DNA of 64,000 nt. Source: Methanocaldococcus sp. 16A (GTDB lineage: Archaea > AGJL01 > Methanococci > Methanococcales > Methanocaldococcaceae). A program made the translations under genes and the position numbers. The stretch lies in NCBI GenBank assembly GCA_049860595.1, contig CP187551.1; one strand, written 5' to 3'. This document shows positions 11,432-36,565 of the stretch, piece after piece; the first letter of the stretch is position 1, and each line of letters opens with the position of its first letter. The notes under the pieces are model-generated. The model was not told where the DNA came from and ran no database searches. It saw nothing but the letters and a program-made list of their open reading frames with translations.

Positions 11432-11688
11432 AGTTATCATCCCAATTTTCATTAAACGAGCATAATGTATAACTCTTATATTTATTAAGAATATTTAATG
11501 TTTAATAGAAACTTATATAAGTTTTAATATTATAAAATTTTATATTTAAATATATAAATTATAAATAAAATAAAAAATAATAATATTGATTATGAAGAGA
11601 TTACGAGAAAATCCAACATACTACAGATTAAACAATTTAATAAAATTATGCGAGACTACGAGTATATACATATTTATTTACCAAAAAA

Positions 11689-12849
11689 TTATTTTTCCCC
11701 TCCTCCATGCTTACTTTTTCTTGGTCTTATTTTTATGATTTTTAGAAATTCTTTTTCATCATCTATAAAGACACATTCTCCTTTATTTAAATCTTTAATA
11801 TACACTTTTAATTCTTTTCCCATATATTCCTGGTTGAGTTTGTTTAATGCATTTATATCTTCTCTATTTGTTACTTTATGTGCAAAAATAATATCACATT
11901 GACTTAAAACCTCATTGTCAATTGCTGAGGGTTGTTGAGTAGCTATAACTAAATTTAATCCTGGCTGTCTTCCTTCCTTTGCCCATCTTATTAATATTTC
12001 TTTTGACAATGTTGATTTTCCAGAAGGAATGAAATTGTGTGCCTCATCAATAAACATCCAAACTTTCGGCATTTTTGATGGTAAATTTAACATTTCCTTT
12101 TTTCTTGATTTCAATCGTTGATTAAATAGATACTTTGCAATTATTGATACAATTAAATCTCTCAATCCGTATCTTCCACTTTCAATAACACTCAAATCAA
12201 TAACATTTATTGCGTTTCTTTCAAAAATTTCTTCTATTGGTATATATTCATCTGAAAAAATACCCCATTTTTTTGCCATATTTAGACGGTTAATTAATGC
12301 TTCTTTTGTGGTTTCTTTTGATTTTGTATCCCTTTCTACTTCATAAATGATATCATCAATTGTAAAAAAATCTTTTTTAATATTATCAATTGCTCTATAT
12401 AATGCGATTCCCATCATTTCATTTATATTCAAATTAAATAGATCACACCATCCTTCTGCTGAAATATCTGATGGATTTAACAAAAGTTTTTTGAATTCTA
12501 CTCCTCTATTTTTCATTTCTCTTATAACATCTTCATCAAATCTTTTGTCTATTTCTCCAGGAACTATCAATTTTACAGGATATCTTTCTGGATATAAATC
12601 CCAATCCCAAAGGTTTTCTTCTTGTTCTTCATTAGGCTCTACCATAGTCCAAAATATCCCCATCGGATCAATTATAATCTTTAAATAATCTGGATGTTTT
12701 TCTTGAATTTCTTCAACTAAAACTCCCAATGTATAGCTTTTTCCACTACCTCTTTTACCACAAATAAAAATTGCATGAGATTTTGAAGCATCTATATAAA
12801 CATCTTCTCCTAACATATCTTTTAGTTTTTCTCTTCCAATAAATAACAT
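11689..12849 (-). CDS. HerA/FtsK-superfamily (DUF87-like) ATPase
   Basis: Walker A GKRGSGKS, IIDPMG, Walker B FIDEAH, KEGRQPG, ATQQPS. Confidence 0.88.
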   Translation of the reverse strand: MLFIGREKLKDMLGEDVYIDASKSHAIFICGKRGSGKSYTLGVLVEEIQEKHPDYLKIIIDPMGIFWTMVEPNEEQEENLWDWDLYPERYPVKLIVPGEIDKRFDEDVIREMKNRGVEFKKLLLNPSDISAEGWCDLFNLNINEMMGIALYRAIDNIKKDFFTIDDIIYEVERDTKSKETTKEALINRLNMAKKWGIFSDEYIPIEEIFERNAINVIDLSVIESGRYGLRDLIVSIIAKYLFNQRLKSRKKEMLNLPSKMPKVWMFIDEAHNFIPSGKSTLSKEILIRWAKEGRQPGLNLVIATQQPSAIDNEVLSQCDIIFAHKVTNREDINALNKLNQEYMGKELKVYIKDLNKGECVFIDDEKEFLKIIKIRPRKSKHGGGEK

Positions 12850-12852
12850 AAT

Positions 12853-13803
12853 CTACCCCTCAATAATAATTAAAGGCACAAAACACTCCTCAAATGATAT
12901 ATTTCCATGAGAACCTTTTTTATATTTTTTTGTAAAATTCCACTTTATACCATGATCAGCTGTAATTACTATAAGATAAGACTGATTTGTTTGATTTAGA
13001 ATATCTATTAAGAGGTTTATATTTTCAAAGATTTCTTTTATTCTATTAATTATTCTTTTTTTACTAACTTCCCTTAATTTATGTGCATCATCATCTAATC
13101 CAATTTTGTAAATTTGAATATATTTTTTTGATAGTTTATTTTTAGATATTATATTATAAATGTCCTCATCATAATGAAAAATGTTCTTTTCACTTATATA
13201 TCTAAATAAAATATCGGTTAATGTATTTTTTCTATTCCAATATGTTTGTCCATATCCTTTATATCCAATCTTATAAAGTTCCTTTGCAATAGGTATGCCA
13301 TTTTTTCCATAAACTATATTTTTAAGCCCATTTTCAGTCGTAGTTTTTCCATTAACAAATATAGGTTCAGCACTATAATTTATGTCTGCATTTATATAAT
13401 CCCAGTAAGATAATCCATCAATAAGATACAATATAACTGTTTTTGGGGTTTTAGTATTAACATAATTAATGATATAATCTTTAACATCTTTTTGTGTTCT
13501 AACATACTTTTCAATTAAATTATATTTTTCATTAATAATTTTATTTAATTCTGGTGTAAAAGGATTATGGTCTATTTCATAAATAGGTAGCCTATAGTCA
13601 AATTTATCAGTTATAACAAATTTTTTTTGAGGAAGTTCTTTATTTGGATTATCAACCATTAACCAAAAATCATTATATGAGATATCTTCAAAATCAAAAA
13701 ATAGAAGAGAAAGTTTATGTTTTATTTTTAAGTAACATGGAGTTTTTATCTTTTTTATTTCTTCCTTACAATTATTTCTACATTCTCCATATTCAATAGA
13801 CAT
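12853..13803 (-). CDS. PglZ-like alkaline-phosphatase-superfamily protein
   Basis: YLIDGLSY, TTTE, LDDDAH, ITADHG, HGNISFEECFVP match the PglZ metal-binding motif series. Confidence 0.8.
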   Translation of the reverse strand: MSIEYGECRNNCKEEIKKIKTPCYLKIKHKLSLLFFDFEDISYNDFWLMVDNPNKELPQKKFVITDKFDYRLPIYEIDHNPFTPELNKIINEKYNLIEKYVRTQKDVKDYIINYVNTKTPKTVILYLIDGLSYWDYINADINYSAEPIFVNGKTTTENGLKNIVYGKNGIPIAKELYKIGYKGYGQTYWNRKNTLTDILFRYISEKNIFHYDEDIYNIISKNKLSKKYIQIYKIGLDDDAHKLREVSKKRIINRIKEIFENINLLIDILNQTNQSYLIVITADHGIKWNFTKKYKKGSHGNISFEECFVPLIIIEG

Positions 13804-16800
13804 TTTAATGTCCCCTCAATAGACATATTTAGATGTTTTGCAATATCTTTAATTGAAATTTCACCATATTTATTCAATAACTCAATTATTTTCATTTCTT
13901 CTTCTTTTAACTTACCAAATCTATTTTTTTCAATAATTTCTCTCTTTATCTCTTTTCTAACTTTATCTAACTCTCCCCATATTTCAAGTATATTAGATTT
14001 TACTTCTTCAATAACATTTACTATATTATCAATATTATCTTTATTTATAACATCAATATCTATGCTATTTAATTTATTTTCTATTTCATTTAGTGTTTTT
14101 AGATAGTTTTCATCATTGTCCAATTTTATTTCTACGTCTGTCTTTAATGATACTATGTAATCATATATTCTGTTTAAAACATCTTGAAGATACGTTCTTA
14201 CATTTCTTACGAGATTTTGATAAGCTATATCTCTATCTTCAATAGTAATTGGTTCTCTGTATGAATATGAAGGGATATCTAACAATTTTAATGTATTGGA
14301 CAAAAAGTTCATTTTTGTTTTGATTTCATCTTGAATCCTATTAAATTCATTTCTTAAATTACTCTCTTTTTTCTTTATGTCTTTTTCGATTAACTCTATA
14401 TCTTTTTCAACATCTTTATCCATGTATAAATAGTTTTCACCATCTCTTGCAAAGTTAGTTATTATTTCATTTATTAATTCGTTAAATCTTTCATACTCTT
14501 CATCAATGTCAATATACTCCTTATAAGCATCTATTTTTTCATATAATTCTTTTAATTTTCTAAGAATAACTAACCAAGATTTAAACTTGTTATATTTCTC
14601 ATTGATATTGACATATTCCTTTTTTAATTCATTCATTTTTTTATTAGCTATTTTTAAAACTTCAGCAAGATTTTCAAGATCTCTTGAAGATGTTATAGTT
14701 TCTCTTAATTCTAATAACTCTTTTGATAGTATATTACATTTCTTTTTTGTTATCTTTATTTGTTCCTCTAAATGTCTAACTATCCCCCCTAACGCATAAT
14801 GTGTCTTTGTAATATCCTCTTTTAAATCTTCTATTTTTCTTTTTAGTTCATTAGTTTTTTCTCCTGTTTTTAAAATTTCATTTAACAATTCTTCCTTATT
14901 TTTAGTTATCTCATTTTTAATTATTTCGTAATATCCTCTTAAAGTTCTCTCCCAACTTTCTAAAAGTTCTAAGTCTTTGTATAATAAATCAGAATTTTTC
15001 TGATTCAGAATCTCTTCTTTTTTAGATAGATTTATAGGAATCTTTGGAATATCCTTTCCATATTTTTTATAGAGATTTACAACATTCCTTGCAAGTTTTT
15101 CAACTTCATCAAATTTATTTAAAACATCAGTATTTGTTATCTCCTCAAGCTTAAATATAAATCCTTTATCGATTTCAATATATCTTCTACTTTCAAGGAT
15201 TTTTAAAATTTCTTTAACTTCATCTTCAGTATATCCTAAAGACATTCCATACTTAATTATTTCATCCATATGTATTGGTTGCGTCCATTTTTCAATAAAT
15301 TCTTTTAATATTTTTTCTTCAAGTGAATGTTTTTTTAATCTAACTATAATTTTATCTTTTTTACCCCACTCTTCTAAGTGTATTAAATCCTTCCATTTTC
15401 CACTTTTACACTCTTCATCGAACCCTGCAACACTTGGATTTTTACTACCAGTTAATTTGGAAACTAAGTCCTTTTTAGTAGTTTCGAATTTGTCACCTCT
15501 TCTCTTTGAGATCGGTAATGATTCTAATAATATTCTATATCTTTCTAAATCTCTTTGCCAGTTTGTAGAATGGATTAAAGTTCTATAATCTTTAAATTTA
15601 TATTCACAAATTCTATTAAATATTTCTTCAACCATCTTTTCTAATCGTGCCTTTAACTCATATTTTTCTGCTAATTCATCTGAGAACAAAAATCTTTTTA
15701 AATATCTTATAAGAAGTGACTTTAATGAATCTATTTCACCCTTATATTTTATGTAATCCCCTTCTTTTTCTTTAATTTTGTCAAGATAATCTAAGAGACA
15801 CAGCATAAACATTGGAGTAACTTCTTGTGGTTTAACATACTGTTGAAGTTTTTTTAACTCACCAGGCAAATTATTCTCTCCAACTCTCTTTAAAACATTA
15901 AATTTAAAGATTACATCTCCATTTTTATAGTCAATTATTAAATCATTATTTTCTATATTTTTATCTAATATAAATTTAAACTCAATATCTGGTGAAATAT
16001 CACCTACTAAATTTTTAATAAACTCCATACCTATTTCTCCAGGTTCTTTCTTTAAAGAATATACACTAACAGTTCTAAATGGATATTTCTTATTAAAAGT
16101 CCCAGTTAATAAATGATAATATCCATAGTTTATAGGATATTTTAAATCGAATCTCCACCCTATAATTTGAGATCCTTTTTTCTTTGGAAAGATTTCAGGT
16201 AATAAATGATTTATAAATGCATTAATCATTTCATCTTCCCAAGATTCATCAAATACATGTCTAAATTTTCTTATGTGTTGTTCTACATAACTACCAGAAC
16301 TTTCGTCTAATAATCCTCTTAATGTATATCCTTCAAGGGCATAAACAATTTCAGTTCCATAATAAGCATCTGAAAGTTCTTCAAACTCATTATATAAGCT
16401 ATACTTTTTTATTAAATCATCAGATACTCCTCTTGGAAATGCTCCCAACAATTTAGTAACTTTTCTTTTTTCTTCAGAATTAACTTTACTTAGAGACAAA
16501 CCTTCATTTAAAGCATCTAAATATTTTTGTTGTATATATGCAATTTTGCCATTTAAGATATCATCAACAAAATCAAATACAGAATAGGGTTCTAATTTTT
16601 CTTTATATTTTGTGCAAGCACATTTAAATGCTCCAATAACTGTCCTTGGACCTTTACCTAAATCATCTCTTGAAGAGATCTCACCAATACTTCTTAAACA
16701 GTCCTTTGTTATAATTTCATAAGGATAAAACCCTAAAAGTTCGCCATATTTGTTCCACAATTTTTCTGCAAAGTCTACATTATATATATTTACTAAATTT

Positions 16801-17594
16801 AAATAGAATCCATCTTTTCGTAATCTATCAATTAAATCTCCAGCTCTTATGCTTAAATCCTCTTCTTGATAATCTGGAATTATAAACAATATCCCCAATC
16901 CTATATTACTAATACTAAGTTCAAAAATAAAATTTCTTAAATCGTTAATAATTTCCATATTGTTTATTCCTTGCACTTCATCTACAAAAATTGCTAATCC
17001 GTCATAATGTTCTTTTATAAGATCATATATTTCCTTTAAAAAATTCATTAGGTCTTTTGGGGTTATTGATATAATTAATTTACCTTTTTCTATGAAACTA
17101 TTAATTATTCTTCTAGCTTCATCTTTTGTTAAGTGTTCTTTTTTTGCTAACTCATCAATCTCTTTTTCTATACTTAATGTTTTATATTTTCTATAAATTT
17201 CTTCAATTTTTTCAACATATTCGGGATATTTATATTTATAAACATACTTTGTCCAACCATAAACTGCATCCATGATTGTATCAAGTTTTCTATCGAACTT
17301 AAATGGGGGAATAGATAATATATTATTATTTTTGCAATATTCCCATAAACTCAGTGCCTTACTTGTCTTTCCATATCCATAAGGAGCAGATATATATCCT
17401 TTAACAGTTTTTCCTTTTTTAATTTCTTTTACAAATCTACGATCAAAGTCTTCATCATCAACTTTTATATATGTTTTTAAATGTTTTTCATAATTATCTG
17501 CAACTAAATCAGGATTGTTTATTAAATTTTCAACTGACTGAGTATCCACTACAGGACTCTTATTTATTATATATTCTAATGCACTAATATCCAT
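13755..17594 (-). CDS. Large AAA+/STAND-type ATPase with coiled coil and terminal HTH (BrxC-like)
   Basis: Walker A APYGYGKT, Walker B IFVDEVQ, LIDRL, GPRTVI; long heptad-rich C-terminal third; HTH-like tail; GGGAGGGT RBS before ATG 17594. Confidence 0.7.
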   Translation of the reverse strand: MDISALEYIINKSPVVDTQSVENLINNPDLVADNYEKHLKTYIKVDDEDFDRRFVKEIKKGKTVKGYISAPYGYGKTSKALSLWEYCKNNNILSIPPFKFDRKLDTIMDAVYGWTKYVYKYKYPEYVEKIEEIYRKYKTLSIEKEIDELAKKEHLTKDEARRIINSFIEKGKLIISITPKDLMNFLKEIYDLIKEHYDGLAIFVDEVQGINNMEIINDLRNFIFELSISNIGLGILFIIPDYQEEDLSIRAGDLIDRLRKDGFYLNLVNIYNVDFAEKLWNKYGELLGFYPYEIITKDCLRSIGEISSRDDLGKGPRTVIGAFKCACTKYKEKLEPYSVFDFVDDILNGKIAYIQQKYLDALNEGLSLSKVNSEEKRKVTKLLGAFPRGVSDDLIKKYSLYNEFEELSDAYYGTEIVYALEGYTLRGLLDESSGSYVEQHIRKFRHVFDESWEDEMINAFINHLLPEIFPKKKGSQIIGWRFDLKYPINYGYYHLLTGTFNKKYPFRTVSVYSLKKEPGEIGMEFIKNLVGDISPDIEFKFILDKNIENNDLIIDYKNGDVIFKFNVLKRVGENNLPGELKKLQQYVKPQEVTPMFMLCLLDYLDKIKEKEGDYIKYKGEIDSLKSLLIRYLKRFLFSDELAEKYELKARLEKMVEEIFNRICEYKFKDYRTLIHSTNWQRDLERYRILLESLPISKRRGDKFETTKKDLVSKLTGSKNPSVAGFDEECKSGKWKDLIHLEEWGKKDKIIVRLKKHSLEEKILKEFIEKWTQPIHMDEIIKYGMSLGYTEDEVKEILKILESRRYIEIDKGFIFKLEEITNTDVLNKFDEVEKLARNVVNLYKKYGKDIPKIPINLSKKEEILNQKNSDLLYKDLELLESWERTLRGYYEIIKNEITKNKEELLNEILKTGEKTNELKRKIEDLKEDITKTHYALGGIVRHLEEQIKITKKKCNILSKELLELRETITSSRDLENLAEVLKIANKKMNELKKEYVNINEKYNKFKSWLVILRKLKELYEKIDAYKEYIDIDEEYERFNELINEIITNFARDGENYLYMDKDVEKDIELIEKDIKKKESNLRNEFNRIQDEIKTKMNFLSNTLKLLDIPSYSYREPITIEDRDIAYQNLVRNVRTYLQDVLNRIYDYIVSLKTDVEIKLDNDENYLKTLNEIENKLNSIDIDVINKDNIDNIVNVIEEVKSNILEIWGELDKVRKEIKREIIEKNRFGKLKEEEMKIIELLNKYGEISIKDIAKHLNMSIEGTLKCLLNMENVEIIVRKK

Positions 17595-18081
17595 ATACCC
17601 TCCCCCTAAAAATTTTCCATAAATCAATATTTGAATTTTGAATACTAACATTTATATTTTTTCCAATAATTGGAGATAAATTATTCAACACTTGTTTCAC
17701 ATCATATAAATCCAATTTTAGCTCCACTCCATAATCTAAAATTTTCTCTTTTGAGATATATATTACTTTTTTTGCTTTTAGAGAGACCATTCTTCTTACT
17801 TCTCTCCAATCATACAATGTTCCATTATCAATAATTACATTTATATTTCTTGCATTATAATTTTTAAATATTTCTTCATTTTCAAAATATACAAAGTTAT
17901 TATTTTTTGCAAATACCCATCCTAAAAATGTCTTTCCTACGCCTTTTTTTCCATAAAGATTAACAACATCATCATAAATAAGAAATTCTTTCAATTTTTT
18001 ATAAGCTTTTTTTTGGTTATGAGTTAGCCAATCATAAGAATAATTAGTTTTGATATAATTTATTAATGAAATATAATCCAT
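17584..18081 (-). CDS. Small P-loop NTPase-fold protein (BrxB position)
   Basis: LYGKKGVGKT Walker A, VIIDN degenerate Walker B; 165 aa; overlaps the large ATPase start. Confidence 0.6.
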   Translation of the reverse strand: MDYISLINYIKTNYSYDWLTHNQKKAYKKLKEFLIYDDVVNLYGKKGVGKTFLGWVFAKNNNFVYFENEEIFKNYNARNINVIIDNGTLYDWREVRRMVSLKAKKVIYISKEKILDYGVELKLDLYDVKQVLNNLSPIIGKNINVSIQNSNIDLWKIFRGRVYGY

Positions 18082-18089
18082 AATCTCCC

Positions 18090-18830
18090 CTATAATATAT
18101 CCTCAAAAGTCCATGTTCTTTTTAATCGTACATACTTTCCAAACATTTTTATTGAAATCTCAACAAAATCATAGATGAAATCAAGATCTTTCAAGAGATT
18201 ATCTAATGCTTTATCTTCAATCAAGCAAAACTTACAGAGTTCTTCAATTTTATTCTCATCTAAAAGCATTAATGAACCGTATTCCTCTCCCCACTGTTTT
18301 TTATATAAGTAATCAATACCCCATAATAATAGATGTAGTTGGCAGTAATCTCTAAGGTTAAACACATTATTTTCATCAATTGGAGATGGATAAAGTGACT
18401 TAATAAAGTTAATTGCTCCACGAACACTATTACTACTAAATGATATACTACCAAATCCTTCATCAAATGCTCTTTCTTTAACTTTTTGTTCAATATCGTT
18501 ATGATTTATTTTTTTACCCATATATTCTTCCCATAATATGTTAATTACACATCTATATGACCATCCTATTGGAGAGGTGGAAGTATAAAGTTTATAGTGA
18601 AGATAATTATTAAACATCTCATCATCCATTTTTAAAATATTTTCAATTTCATTATTATCTTTAACATTTATTAACTTGTTCATAATTGTATAGTTATCAT
18701 CTATTATGCTTGATTTAATTTCCGGAAATATTTTCTTTAATTCAGATTTTTTTAAATTATTCCCATATTCAAGAAATTTTCTTATAATTTCTGGCTTAGC
18801 GTTATGTTGAATATGGAAACTACCTTTCAT
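18090..18830 (-). CDS. Hypothetical protein, possibly BrxA/DUF4007-like DNA-binding component
   Basis: 246-aa ORF with ATGA overlap to the upstream gene; function inferred from size and position only. Confidence 0.4.
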   Translation of the reverse strand: MKGSFHIQHNAKPEIIRKFLEYGNNLKKSELKKIFPEIKSSIIDDNYTIMNKLINVKDNNEIENILKMDDEMFNNYLHYKLYTSTSPIGWSYRCVINILWEEYMGKKINHNDIEQKVKERAFDEGFGSISFSSNSVRGAINFIKSLYPSPIDENNVFNLRDYCQLHLLLWGIDYLYKKQWGEEYGSLMLLDENKIEELCKFCLIEDKALDNLLKDLDFIYDFVEISIKMFGKYVRLKRTWTFEDIL

Positions 18831-19753
18831 TCTTTCACCATTTCATATAGGACAATTATATTATGTAATGATCTATATATTTTAAATTTTCTTAAATTAT
18901 TTAAATTTTTACAAAAGTAACACTCATGACCATTTCTAAGATTTTCAATTAAATAATCATATCCAATATAATTTTTTTGTGAAGTTCTTGGAGATTTGCC
19001 AGTTATATTAATAGTTCGTGAATTGGGAAAATATATATCTCCGAATCCACTTGCCTTATCCCAACTACTACTATCAAAACTATCTACATAATCTTTAATT
19101 TTATTTACAGAACTACCTCCACCAATCCCAAAAGCATGTAATTCAAATCCATAATCTTTTGCTAACATAGATAGATACTTTAAATTTTCCAAACTTTCTT
19201 TAGTTAATCTGTTAATTTGATTATTTTTTCCACAAGTACCAAAACTTCCAAAACCTAATCGTCTAACATTTAAATCTGCATAATTTTTAACACAATAATA
19301 TATCATCTCTTTATTAATTCCCTGAACTACAGGAACAAATTTTTTTTCTAATTTTCCGTTAAACTCTTCAGCAAAACTCTTTGCAAAATAAACTGTCTCA
19401 TAAACTTTTCCCCATGCAGTCTCTACATTATCAGATGAAACTGGTGGAGAATCTGGTAGAACATACCAATCTCCCCATTTATTATTTTCATAAAATTTTC
19501 TCAAAAATGAAAATAGTTGATGTATTTCAAACTTCCCTTGTTGAACATAGTATCCTCCACTATCAAACATAACAGTTGTTTTATATTTTTTCTTTAAATT
19601 TTTAATTTCCTGTATAGTTCCTTCTGATGAAACTATCGGAGTAAAGATTACATTTTCAAATGCCCATTTTTTTGGCTCATGTTTCTTTAAAAGTTCAACC
19701 ATTCTCCTAATCTGACCTGGGGAAATCGTCAATGATGCATAAAATTCCACCAT
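18827..19753 (-). CDS. Stand-alone tRNA-guanine transglycosylase-fold protein (DpdA-like)
   Basis: FDSGGY, VLPD, PVVQG, LGFGS, HAFG, VDSFDSSSW, Zn-site HECYFC...LHN; 308 aa, no PUA domain. Confidence 0.82.
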   Translation of the reverse strand: MVEFYASLTISPGQIRRMVELLKKHEPKKWAFENVIFTPIVSSEGTIQEIKNLKKKYKTTVMFDSGGYYVQQGKFEIHQLFSFLRKFYENNKWGDWYVLPDSPPVSSDNVETAWGKVYETVYFAKSFAEEFNGKLEKKFVPVVQGINKEMIYYCVKNYADLNVRRLGFGSFGTCGKNNQINRLTKESLENLKYLSMLAKDYGFELHAFGIGGGSSVNKIKDYVDSFDSSSWDKASGFGDIYFPNSRTINITGKSPRTSQKNYIGYDYLIENLRNGHECYFCKNLNNLRKFKIYRSLHNIIVLYEMVKE

Positions 19754-19755
19754 TT

Positions 19756-20337
19756 TTACCCCTCTAAATATTTAGCCATTAATACTAAATCCTTATTACC
19801 TCTTGTATGGTTTTTTAAAATACCTTCAATTATAAAACCATTTTTTATAAAAAATCTAAGCCCTCCTTCATTATCTTTAGGAACCTCGGCATATATCTTT
19901 TTCTTTTTTAATTTTTTAGCTTTTTTTTCCAAAAAGTCAATAAAATATATACCAAGAGATTTATTTTTAAATTTTTTATCTATTGCAATATAATTAATTT
20001 TTAGATAATTTGGTTTTTCTCCATAAACTACAACACCAATCAAATCATTTTTATGGAAAATTCCTGCTACATTTATAGTTTTAGAGGTCGTAATCCATTG
20101 CTTTATTGATGATTTATAAACAAAGCCCCAAATATCTGCATAATTTAACAATATCTCTTGAACCCTGTCAACATAATTAACATCATCAATATCTTTAACT
20201 ATAATTTTATTTTTAATTTTTTCTATTTGTTTCGATGACTTTTTGTTTTTATTTTTGTTATTACTTTCAATTAATTCAAATTTTTTATATAAATCATAAA
20301 TTTCAAAGATTATTTTTTGTTGCGTATTCAAGCCCAT
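19756..20337 (-). CDS. GNAT-family N-acetyltransferase
   Basis: IAIDKKFKNKSLG (motif A), NEGGLRFFIKNGF (motif B). Confidence 0.85.
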   Translation of the reverse strand: MGLNTQQKIIFEIYDLYKKFELIESNNKNKNKKSSKQIEKIKNKIIVKDIDDVNYVDRVQEILLNYADIWGFVYKSSIKQWITTSKTINVAGIFHKNDLIGVVVYGEKPNYLKINYIAIDKKFKNKSLGIYFIDFLEKKAKKLKKKKIYAEVPKDNEGGLRFFIKNGFIIEGILKNHTRGNKDLVLMAKYLEG

Positions 20338-20983
20338 ATTTTCTCGCCCCTATTGCATTTATAAATTGTGGATTTTTAGGAATATAAACATCTTTTTCAG
20401 TAATTTCCTTAAAATATTTCACGAATGCCTCATTTTCTGCAACTCCTCCAATCAAGGCAATAGTATCGCATTCAAATGGGTTCATGTTAGCTATTTTCTT
20501 TGCTATAGTGTAATTTACAGATGATATAATATCTCTGATAGTATAGCCATTCACAAGGTAGTTAATTATTTCAGAAATTGAAAAAACAGCACAAGTGTTA
20601 TTTAATTTTAATGGATTTTTTGAGTAATATTTTCCAAAGTTCTCTATAGGAACATCTAAATACATGGCTATAGTTTGCAAAAATAGTCCAGTACCAGCTC
20701 CACATTTATCATTCATTACAAACTCTAATGTTTTTGTATTTATTATCTTTGTATCCTGTCCTCCAACATCAATTATAACATCAACTTCTTTATCAACACC
20801 GTATATAGCAGCAGTAATTTCAGTTATATGATTTCTAAATCTCTTTCTGAAATATCCTGTTGCGAAGACATCTCTATCATTATATTTCTCCAATATCTCG
20901 TTCAATTTAATTATGGAATATTTTTTGAAACCTTGCTCATCTGCAATTTTTATATTTGTTGAACCAACATCAATGCCTATCAT
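20303..20983 (-). CDS. HgdC/BadFG/BcrAD-type ASKHA ATPase activator
   Basis: GIDVGST, ATGY, IDVGGQDTK, MNDKCGAGTG, TCAVFS, GGVAEN, AIGA. Confidence 0.92.
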   Translation of the reverse strand: MIGIDVGSTNIKIADEQGFKKYSIIKLNEILEKYNDRDVFATGYFRKRFRNHITEITAAIYGVDKEVDVIIDVGGQDTKIINTKTLEFVMNDKCGAGTGLFLQTIAMYLDVPIENFGKYYSKNPLKLNNTCAVFSISEIINYLVNGYTIRDIISSVNYTIAKKIANMNPFECDTIALIGGVAENEAFVKYFKEITEKDVYIPKNPQFINAIGARKYGLEYATKNNL

Positions 20984-20985
20984 AA

Positions 20986-21918
20986 CTACCCCAACAACTC
21001 TATAAATGCTTCAATTCTCAGCTTTGTTTGTTCTGGTGTTTTTTGGGGGATGTCCCCCTCTATTGTTAGTATGGGATAATCAATAAATTCCCTAAGAATC
21101 TCATCTTCTAATTTATGATGACAATTCATTTGGGTATAATGAATTACTCCATCAACTTTTCTCTTTTTTAATTCTTTTTTTAGAATTTTTATTCTTTTAG
21201 TTATGTGATTTGCAAAACTGTATGTTGAATAACTATTTACTATACTCTTTATTGAATCTCCTCCCATTCTTACAAATTCATAAGCAAGTTCATTATAAAC
21301 ACAATGTACATTTATTTCATTTAAGTATTCATAAAAATCGCTAAAAATTGGTGGAATTCCTATTATAGCAATCCTATGTCTATATTCAATGTTTTCATCT
21401 TTGTTTAATATGTTATAGATTTCTTTTTTGTATGCATTTAAATCTCCTTTTAAATCACTTGCAGAAATTGTAATATAAAAGGCATCTTTTCCATTTATTT
21501 TGTCTTTATAGCATAATTCATCTACTTTTTTTGCAAGTTTTTTTATTTGATAAACTTCTCTTAAAGTAGTTTTATCAATATTTCCACCCAAAAAATTAAT
21601 AAGTTTTTTTATTTCATTTTCAAAATGTTTTTTATCTCCAAATTGATAAAAGAAATAATGTGTTGGAATTTTTTTCTTTAGTTCTATCTTTTCAGCATCA
21701 ACAAGAGAATTTTGACAATCACCTCCCGCAACAACAATTAATGTATCAATTTTAATTTCATCTTTTAAAATCAATTCTCTCCAAGTTGCAGTCCATGCAC
21801 ATAGTTTATTTTTAGGATAAATTTTCGATTGTGGAACTAAATTATTTAGATCTATAGGAGTATGACCTGCAGAATAAATAATTTCTGGTGGTACTATAGC
21901 AGTAATTCCAACTTTCAT
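20986..21918 (-). CDS. 2-hydroxyacyl-CoA dehydratase/benzoyl-CoA reductase-family Fe-S subunit
   Basis: PEIIYSAG, three spaced Cys (LCAW, GDCQ, NCHH), VDGVIHY, PILTIEGD, LRIEAFIE. Confidence 0.88.
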   Translation of the reverse strand: MKVGITAIVPPEIIYSAGHTPIDLNNLVPQSKIYPKNKLCAWTATWRELILKDEIKIDTLIVVAGGDCQNSLVDAEKIELKKKIPTHYFFYQFGDKKHFENEIKKLINFLGGNIDKTTLREVYQIKKLAKKVDELCYKDKINGKDAFYITISASDLKGDLNAYKKEIYNILNKDENIEYRHRIAIIGIPPIFSDFYEYLNEINVHCVYNELAYEFVRMGGDSIKSIVNSYSTYSFANHITKRIKILKKELKKRKVDGVIHYTQMNCHHKLEDEILREFIDYPILTIEGDIPQKTPEQTKLRIEAFIELLG

Positions 21919-21998
21919 AAATGCACACCTACTAAAAAATATAATATAAGATAATAATGATAAAAAAATTGACTAATTAAAATAAAAATTTTTTTAAG

Positions 21999-31844: not shown

Positions 31845-34850
<3,006 letters not shown>

Positions 34851-34947
34851 ATCCAGATTTCACCGGGATGTGGAAGCCTATGCATGGCCCTCATGTTTTT
34901 CAGGCCCTTCACCTGCAACTCTTTAGAGTTGCAGGCTGCATATATAG

Positions 34948-35020
34948 TGGACCCGGTGGGATTTGAACCCACGGCCTCCGGCTTGCAAGGCCGGCGCTCT
35001 CCCAGCTGAGCTACGGGCCC
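34948..35020 (-). tRNA. tRNA-Ala(UGC), CCA not encoded
   Basis: GGGCCCGTAGCTCAG...CTTGCAA...GGTTCAAATCC...GGTCCA cloverleaf in the 16S-23S spacer. Confidence 0.97.
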
Positions 35021-35084
35021 ACTTTCCCTATGAGGCAAGCCCACGACTGGTTTGGTGCCCCGCAGCAACCAGCACTTTTTTCTC

Positions 35085-36565
<1,481 letters not shown>

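Follow-up and report, generated by a model that had tools for sequence, protein, structure and literature searches.

We analyzed a 64,000-nucleotide stretch of the Methanocaldococcus sp. 16A genome (contig CP187551.1, assembly GCA_049860595.1; hereafter the window), in which nine minus-strand genes at positions 11689–21918 combine a base-exchange enzyme of the tRNA-guanine transglycosylase (TGT) superfamily and a GNAT acyltransferase with proteins related to bacteriophage exclusion (BREX) systems. The results support a BREX-related system that is patchily distributed and moves horizontally, and on balance we favor the reading that it is a defense system of the BREX-Related Capture (BRC) type, which marks DNA with a 7-deazaguanine. 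A previous sequence-only reading of the window had proposed a BREX-like system with a TGT-fold enzyme in the place of the methyltransferase; distribution, predicted folds and the homology of the PglZ and BrxC/D components support this view. The core idea is already in print as a prediction, and the locus described here is its methanogen version, which carries a putative Fe-S reductase/activase pair.

Gene content of the operon

The open reading frame (ORF) list of the window confirmed the nine co-oriented, tightly spaced genes noted earlier, with intergenic gaps of 2, 2, 8 and 3 nt and overlaps of 35, 4, 68 and 49 nt. A gene 7 start at residue 20, a methionine at which its Atlas record begins (about 1279 residues, likely start 17594), would reduce the 68-nt overlap to 11 nt. 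Family scans bore out the domain labels given to the nine genes and, as the sequence-only reading had also stated, turned up no match to a methyltransferase, PAPS reductase or nuclease family among the nine. The genes and their two flanking elements are as follows.

20986..21918, minus strand: gene 1, Fe-S protein of the 2-hydroxyacyl-CoA dehydratase / double-cubane-cluster protein family, 310 residues (PF06050)
20303..20983, minus strand: gene 2, ASKHA-fold ATP-dependent activase (electron-transfer ATPase) for gene 1, 226 residues (TIGR00241)
19756..20337, minus strand: gene 3, GNAT acyltransferase, partner of the TGT-like enzyme, 193 residues (PF00583)
18827..19753, minus strand: gene 4, base-exchange enzyme of the TGT superfamily, predicted to write the self mark, 308 residues (predicted fold)
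18090..18830, minus strand: gene 5, helical DNA-binding protein resembling BrxA / SspB (DUF4007), 246 residues (Foldseek)
17584..18081, minus strand: gene 6, small P-loop NTPase, probably a STAND-type BrxB counterpart, 165 residues (weak matches)
13755..17651, minus strand: gene 7, large BrxC/BrxD-type ATPase with a coiled-coil region and a C-terminal winged helix-turn-helix (wHTH), 1298 residues in the longest ORF (hhalign)
12853..13803, minus strand: gene 8, short PglZ-type enzyme of the alkaline-phosphatase fold, presumed effector, 316 residues (sub-threshold profile matches and metal site)
11689..12849, minus strand: gene 9, HerA/FtsK-type translocase ATPase, the most conserved component, 386 residues (PF01935)
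21919..21998, minus strand: leader of 80 nt separating the Cbf5 stop from the gene 1 start
11681..11688, minus strand: oligo-T run immediately past the gene 9 stop codon

According to its predicted model (predicted local distance difference test score, pLDDT, 89.9), gene 4 belongs to the TGT superfamily, with the TIM-barrel of these enzymes, their catalytic aspartates and their zinc subdomain. The Pfam models for TGT (PF01702, E 0.002) and DpdA (PF23859, E 0.021) both match below cut-off. VIA-align superimposed the model on the archaeosine TGT 1iq8 (Z 23.7), DpdA 7ui4 (22.1) and the bacterial TGT 3unt (21.7), and further on QTRT2 (20.9) and Cap10 (16.9), and the best 50 Foldseek matches are all tRNA-guanine transglycosylases (E about 1e-9). 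Invariant in the family are D64 (in FDSGG), D101, D227 (in FDSSSW) and the zinc site H276, C278, C281 and H297 (H-x-C-x-x-C...H); D227 and the zinc ligands align with 1iq8, where D227 falls in the nucleophile region. The DpdA hidden Markov model (HMM), with 14.3 bits for a cut-off of 27, does not support the DpdA identity that the sequence-only reading gave to this protein; by structure, the model lies about equally far from archaeosine TGT, DpdA and bacterial TGT. Because the host keeps a separate archaeosine TGT (318 bits; an ArcS-like gene is also present), gene 4 is an extra, divergent paralogue.

The neighboring gene 3 encodes a GNAT (PF00583, E 8e-8), and this association extends well beyond the window. 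We surveyed one-genome-per-species contigs with the window proteins as queries and confirmed 97 gene 4 stretches, 80 of which were kept as loci (77 bacterial and 3 archaeal; 13 of the 80 are cut short by contig ends). A GNAT of the gene 3 type is present in 69 of these loci, fused to the TGT-like protein in 32, adjacent to it in 16 and elsewhere in the locus, usually directly after HerA, in 21; the 11 loci without it lie mostly on short contigs. The GNAT–TGT fusion proteins among the gene 4 relatives are 460–497 residues long.

Genes 5–8 resemble BREX components. The predicted model of gene 5 (pLDDT 92.4) matched, with weak Foldseek E-values, SspB 6juf (probability 1.00, E 0.026), BrxA 7zge (0.97, E 0.046) and 3bhw (0.60); neither gene 5 nor three of its bacterial and archaeal homologues has a Pfam match. 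Gene 6 has a visible Walker A motif and weak matches only (nSTAND3, E 0.0054), and is found between genes 5 and 7, or past gene 7, in 42 of the 80 loci; it is probably a STAND-type counterpart of BrxB. For gene 7, the Pfam scan returned only the C-terminal wHTH (HTH_24, residues 1253–1294). The N-terminal region of its family aligned by hhalign with 30 PF10923 proteins (probability 97.3, E 2.4e-11, 214 columns), in an alignment that spans Walker A and B; PF10923 was sub-threshold in both gene 7 homologues tested, and the ESM Atlas gave generic ATPase clusters with a single BrxC_BrxD lead at 0.88. Gene 8 has sub-threshold matches to PglZ (E 0.018) and Phosphodiest (E 0.003), whereas its homologues match PF08665 at E 0.002–0.003 in three of three cases and, for one bacterial homologue, the PADLOC PglZ profile at E 2.9e-5. 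The metal-site residues of the alkaline-phosphatase type (D129, G130, D237, H241, D283, H284 and H299) are invariant. About 50 residues (alignment columns 346–400) that the 19 other aligned homologues possess are missing from the Methanocaldococcus protein, with the metal ligands kept. When PDB sequences were searched with profiles built from genes 5, 7 and 8, the results were noise, coiled coils and weak matches to response-regulator chains (E 0.045).

Gene 9 is a HerA-type ATPase (PF01935, E 4.7e-14; PADLOC HerA, E 6e-28; mad8, E 4.8e-25 over the full length). Its bacterial and archaeal orthologues match at E 1e-123 to 1e-153, and it shares 53–56% identity with the versions in three other archaeal loci (genomes G408, G468 and G520).

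Distribution and relation to known systems

Gene 4 is present in 5 of 41 related genomes, and all nine genes are colinear in all four other Methanococcales genomes that carry the TGT-like gene, an arrangement that chance would not give. Conservation of gene order elsewhere, which the sequence-only reading had named as a check, was thus found. Between Cbf5 and the next gene shared with the window, two congeners that lack the system have about 1.7 kb, and the window has 11.6 kb; in genome G009, the cluster occupies a different neighborhood. Two further genomes retain remnants of gene 1: 50 codons in G013 (C1:600443-600592), with 70% identity over residues 19–68 and a TGA within it, beside Cbf5, and 62 codons in G019 (C69:10906-11091), with 79% identity over residues 1–62. 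Judged from these sequences, the remnants look like deletion scars of the whole cluster. The indel, the relocation and the remnants together imply that the cluster comes and goes as a block.

In the protein collection, 248 relatives of gene 4 were found at E<=0.001. The system occurs in 4 of 401 sampled genomes of the phylum of G041, a sample that added the loci of G408, G468 and G520, which contain genes 4–9 and a terminal GNAT, without genes 1–2. The survey hosts are mostly Chloroflexota, Poribacteria and Latescibacterota, with metagenome-assembled genomes of Gemmatimonadota, Acidobacteriota and Pseudomonadota and with three archaea. Among the 80 loci, 72 contain gene 7, 65 contain gene 5 and 42 contain gene 6; gene 8 occurs in 41, as does gene 9. 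Genes 4, 7, 8 and 9 occur together in 39 loci, in the same order and on the same strand in every one, and all six genes 4–9 in 36. Viral contigs yielded two loci of the gene 4 family, one of them also with gene 7, and so give no sign of a phage-borne version.

HerA/FtsK and ORC/Cdc6-like ATPases also act in repair and segregation, and the cluster might accordingly be read as a housekeeping apparatus for DNA maintenance or segregation. We consider this very improbable, as housekeeping would not sit easily with a cluster that is patchily spread, that behaves as an indel at one site and has moved to another, is common to bacteria and archaea, and shows homology to PglZ and BrxC/D.

The sequence-only reading had suspected that such composites were known from earlier surveys, and this suspicion proved right. 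The BRC system was predicted computationally (NAR 2026;54(3):gkag035, PMC12839542; preprint October 2025). Its components, as given in the main text, are PglZ, a BrxC-like protein (DUF6079), a STAND NTPase, a BrxA-like tripartite DNA binder (DUF4007), HerA/FtsK, GNAT and TGT; GNAT–TGT fusions are occasional, and the system is spread sparsely over archaea and bacteria, in 45 taxa. The same text puts GNAT/TGT forward as possible markers of self DNA, “perhaps restricted to dPreQ0”, and treats GNAT/TGT as a feature of a subset and HerA as universal (gkag035). Of these seven components, the operon has HerA, PglZ and the GNAT–TGT pair and probable counterparts of the other three, and its architecture makes membership in BRC probable. 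Compared with that description, the system looks different from the TGT side: GNAT accompanies gene 4 in most surveyed loci, and 24 of the 80 have the TGT-like, BrxA-like and BrxC-like genes but no PglZ or HerA, despite at least 8.5 kb of sequence downstream of gene 4. The main text of gkag035 contains no mention of QueF, preQ1, nitrile, QueC, dehydratase, BadF, MADS, Mza or words beginning with Methano or Chloroflex. The frequency of the GNAT partner, the archaeal redox module and the presence of QueC without QueF in methanogen hosts go beyond that text.

Canonical BREX systems (types 1–6) share with the operon a BrxC/D-type ATPase, a PglZ whose metal site is intact, a BrxA-like protein and a small P-loop protein as partner, and type 4 also resembles it in having a non-methyl module, there a PAPS reductase, in the place of PglX. 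The operon differs from them in that PglX, BrxP, BrxL and the helicase are absent, PglZ is short (316 residues), HerA is added and the writer is a base-exchange enzyme. The Dpd system (DpdA/B/C plus DpdD-K; Salmonella and others) likewise places a TGT-fold enzyme, the DpdA superimposed above at Z 22.1, which inserts 7-cyano-7-deazaguanine (preQ0) into DNA, in an island of the restriction-modification kind. However, no ParB-like DpdB, DUF328 DpdC, DpdD-K or Dpd helicase was matched among the nine proteins, the DpdA Pfam model stays below cut-off for gene 4, and the operon points to 7-aminomethyl-7-deazaguanine (preQ1) rather than to preQ0 or 7-amido-7-deazaguanine (ADG).

Some loci vary around this plan. 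The 24 loci without PglZ and HerA form a second architecture of GNAT, TGT-like, BrxA-like and BrxC-like genes, the last often duplicated (L021, L029, L031, L040, L045, L046, L060, L068, L084 and 15 more). In L021, L031, L040, L045, L046 and L084, divergently transcribed genes for unknown proteins of about 450–660 residues and for a protein of 1450–1890 residues adjoin; the protein from L046, the one that was scanned, has DEAD/Helicase_C domains. Just upstream of gene 4, six of seven bacterial genes tested encode proteins of 680–1010 residues with sigma-70 region 2/4 domains (L013:7624-9999, L014:2786-5272, L020:6960-9995, L023:7116-9977, L061:7356-9407 and L089:7085-9988). Some of these also contain RNA polymerase alpha-CTD and HARE-HTH domains, and one matches PADLOC MzaA (E 1.8e-38); such a gene is not mentioned with BRC in the main text of gkag035. 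In Methanothermococcus sp. Ax23 (locus L011:11684-16028), a 4.4 kb insert places four co-oriented genes between genes 5 and 6, encoding proteins of 749, 215, 195 and 290 residues, the last of which belongs to the CRISPR-associated RAMP superfamily (E 2.9e-19).

Base supply and the Fe-S protein pair

QueF is the NADPH-dependent nitrile reductase that converts preQ0 to preQ1. All ten archaeal loci found carry a redox add-on at the operon ends, which is QueF in three and genes 1–2 in seven. In G468 and G520, a QueF ORF of 142 residues overlaps the gene 4 start by 4 nt, and in G408 a convergent QueF lies 22 bp past the terminal GNAT; G520 has a second QueF 1 kb away. These genes in or beside the three loci are the only QueF matches in their genomes. 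QueF was not found in any of the five methanogen hosts tested. QueC is present in all ten archaeal hosts tested, in line with the earlier proposal that the host makes preQ0. A mark of preQ0 itself is less well supported, as the QueF genes embedded in the three archaeal loci point to a preQ1-derived base. In G468, the only QueC of the genome (C9:51210-51836) lies about 1.5 kb past the 3′ end of the BRC locus.

The near-obligatory GNAT, in turn, favors an acylated base. N-methyl and N-formyl dPreQ1 have been described in phage DNA (PMC10516641). Taken together, QueF in the loci, the aminomethyl group of preQ1 as an acceptor for the GNAT and the N-substituted dPreQ1 of phages suggest a preQ1-derived, acylated mark, a proposal that we make tentatively and rate somewhat below an even chance. 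The phage bases mdPreQ1 and fdPreQ1 (made with DpdM and DpdN) are, as described there, a precedent for N-substituted 7-aminomethyl-7-deazaguanine in DNA, but they are viral anti-restriction marks made by a methyltransferase and a formyltransferase rather than by a cellular GNAT in a BREX-like system.

Genes 1 and 2 have the domain, the cysteines and the adjacent activase of the double-cubane / 2-hydroxyacyl-CoA dehydratase family, to which their sequences assign them. Gene 1 matches HGD-D (PF06050) with E 7e-32 and 111.7 bits (cut-off 28.4), and among solved structures its family profile comes closest to the double-cubane protein 7yyl/6eno, an ATP-dependent reductase (E 2e-14), with HgdB (3o3m_B, E 5e-12) next. 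Gene 2 is a bona fide activase (TIGR00241, 132.6 bits for a cut-off of 125.4; PF01869, E 5.9e-24). Three cysteines of gene 1 are invariant (C40, C68 and C266), and three are aligned in the match to this family; the protein is shorter (310 residues compared with about 420), has no second subunit and lies inside a defense operon. Only one HGD-D gene, and thus no second (alpha) dehydratase subunit, was found among the nine genes, so that a homomeric enzyme of the double-cubane type fits better than HgdAB.

In Methanococcales, orthologues of gene 1 are found only in 5 of 41 relatives, the same ones that carry gene 4; the other genomes contain only a gene 1 paralogue with 30–35% identity. In the seven methanogen loci, genes 1–2 precede the GNAT or sit past HerA with an overlap, the latter in Methanosarcina sp. 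UBA7 and G741, where the pair occupies the opposite end of the operon and overlaps the HerA stop. As QueF and genes 1–2 alternate across the archaeal loci, we propose the pair as a QueF substitute in strict anaerobes. Where genes 1–2 are missing, in three archaeal loci, QueF fills the equivalent places in the operon; it is related to them neither in sequence nor in fold, and the proposed equivalence is positional. That genes 1–2 act as a preQ0 reductase is possible, if rather unlikely.

In the pathway that we propose, the host would synthesize preQ0, which a reductase borne by the locus would convert to preQ1, QueF in the three archaeal loci and genes 1–2 here. The gene 4 enzyme would then replace guanine in host DNA with the 7-deazaguanine, and the GNAT of gene 3 would acylate the aminomethyl group of the inserted base, creating the self mark. 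The BrxA-like protein, the small P-loop NTPase, the BrxC/D-like ATPase and PglZ may form a BREX-like complex for sensing and restriction, to which HerA would pump unmarked DNA. The full scheme, in which genes 1–2 constitute a new class of ATP-driven Fe-S preQ0 reductase and the operon writes N-acyl-7-aminomethyl-7-deazaguanine into the chromosome as a BREX-like self mark, is unlikely to be right in all its parts.

Such a base is not yet known from any cell. If a cellular BREX-type system does mark DNA by base exchange, this would be a third self-marking chemistry of BREX beside methylation and phosphorothioation. The comparison turns a vague GNAT/TGT proposal into a specific pathway of locus-borne preQ0 reduction, preQ1 insertion and acylation by GNAT. 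It also nominates a double-cubane-like Fe-S enzyme and its activase as candidates for another way in which strict anaerobes could make preQ1, which would give the double-cubane enzyme family a physiological substrate. For mass spectrometry, congeners that carry the island and congeners that lack it would serve as natural controls for each other.

Opposing evidence, alternative explanations and flanking sequence

A number of results weigh against this reading of the operon, and they concern the assignment to BRC, the base and its target, and the role of genes 1–2. PADLOC names only HerA among the nine window proteins, leaving the other eight unmatched. The Pfam DUF4007 model is silent on gene 5 in all five hosts and the DUF6079 model finds nothing in the five host genomes; BRC membership is therefore probable by architecture rather than established label by label. 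In the full-text literature, the system was found described only in the computational study gkag035, with no experimental work.

The supply of the base is a second difficulty. Full-length QueC is present in 29 of 55 bacterial hosts and was not found in the other 26, which are mostly Chloroflexota and include chromosome-level assemblies. All five QueC-less bacterial hosts tested have a canonical Tgt; since they lack QueC but keep Tgt, these hosts would depend on salvage, or the base differs there. Genome-wide marking by salvage in QueC-less hosts is an uncomfortable assumption. QueF scored over cut-off in two of five bacterial hosts tested, and a QueF-like ORF occurs in only 1 of the 77 bacterial loci, the other 76 being free of que genes. 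It would fit these data, and the near-constant company of the GNAT, if the inserted base in most bacterial hosts were another guanine analogue, made or acylated by the GNAT, and not a 7-deazaguanine. We regard this as improbable, because QueF is embedded in three archaeal loci and one bacterial locus, the Chloroflexota hosts tested keep a canonical Tgt and so handle salvaged 7-deazaguanines, and the conserved Asp and Gln pocket residues of gene 4 are TGT-like.

The target of the TGT-like enzyme need not be DNA, either. TGT-fold enzymes can modify proteins too, as Cap10, which gene 4 resembles at the Z score given above, deazaguanylates a CD-NTase; the TGT-like/GNAT pair might thus modify tRNA or a protein of the system, or act as a base-excising effector, and leave no mark on DNA. 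The nearest structures to gene 4, which are tRNA transglycosylases, and the cost of genome-wide marking in the many hosts without QueC would agree with such a role. Nevertheless, DpdA is as near to gene 4 as the tRNA enzymes are, the partners of the pair are directed at DNA (the BrxA/SspB-like fold, HerA and the BrxC/D-like ATPase), the locus contains no CD-NTase, and the nine proteins include no other candidate for marking self against non-self. A role away from DNA appears quite unlikely.

Genes 1–2 raise a separate question. Their family was found in none of the 77 bacterial loci by the family HMM, and the pair is also missing from the three other archaeal loci; the sequence-only reading had counted them as members of the operon, but they lie outside its conserved core and are a methanogen-specific add-on. 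They also lead a life apart from the BRC system. In the class of G041 (Methanosarcinia), gene 1 is present in 72 of 392 genomes, and of 25 sampled loci, 24 contain the pair of genes 1 and 2 and 24 are free of any BRC gene. On the gene 1 tree, the BRC label requires two changes, and one recruitment followed by loss is not separated from two recruitments. A phyletic test of the QueF-substitute proposal, which predicted QueF in archaea that have the bacterial-type, preQ1-using Tgt and lack gene 1, failed: in that class, 61 of the 72 genomes that have gene 1 carry the bacterial-type Tgt, as do 80 of the 320 that lack it, and among Tgt-positive genomes QueF turned up in 2 of 40 lacking gene 1 and in 2 of 40 possessing it. 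The expected complementarity was thus not seen, which speaks against a general replacement of QueF by genes 1–2.

These results lend weight to the view that genes 1–2 are an unrelated metabolic module traveling with the defense genes, and that the functional system consists of genes 3–9. We take this seriously as an explanation, while still holding it somewhat doubtful. In Methanococcales, the orthologues are confined to the five genomes that bear the system, and they are lost together with it, leaving remnants; moreover, the pair is attached to the operon in two different ways, with a 2-nt gap or with an overlap: here it stands at the 5′ end, and in Methanosarcina it overlaps the HerA stop. 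The corresponding slots hold QueF in other archaeal loci.

Other observations concern the stand-alone genes. In 13 of the 25 sampled loci, the pair adjoins the housekeeping gene mptA (TIGR00294, 458 bits; L091, L092, L136, L138, L140-L142, L144, L146, L147, L149, L150 and L153), which a traveling metabolic module would also explain. As mptA is the only GTP cyclohydrolase IB of each genome, this link may be inherited synteny. Across the class of G041, a bacterial-type queuosine Tgt scores over cut-off in 140 of 392 genomes, and QueF was found in 4 of 80 Tgt-positive genomes tested. Only seven genomes (G163, G191 and G597-G601), possibly a single lineage, have a bacterial-type Tgt (TIGR00430, 443 bits) no more than 4 kb from gene 1, which is a weak lead.

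The sequence around the operon offers few further clues. Features of the leader are a run of T residues, a TATA-like segment rich in A/T and, 7 nt ahead of the gene 1 ATG, the sequence AGGTG; as the genome is A+T-rich, this is weak evidence for a separate promoter. The oligo-T run past gene 9 is compatible with an archaeal terminator that would close the operon. The G+C content is 0.245–0.265 across 12–22 kb and 0.27–0.31 on both flanks. Elsewhere in the window, positions 32001–36000 reach 63% G+C in a genome that otherwise ranges from 25 to 34%; this stretch, which carries a tRNA-Ala(TGC) at 34947–35020 on the minus strand, is presumably the rRNA operon of a hyperthermophile.

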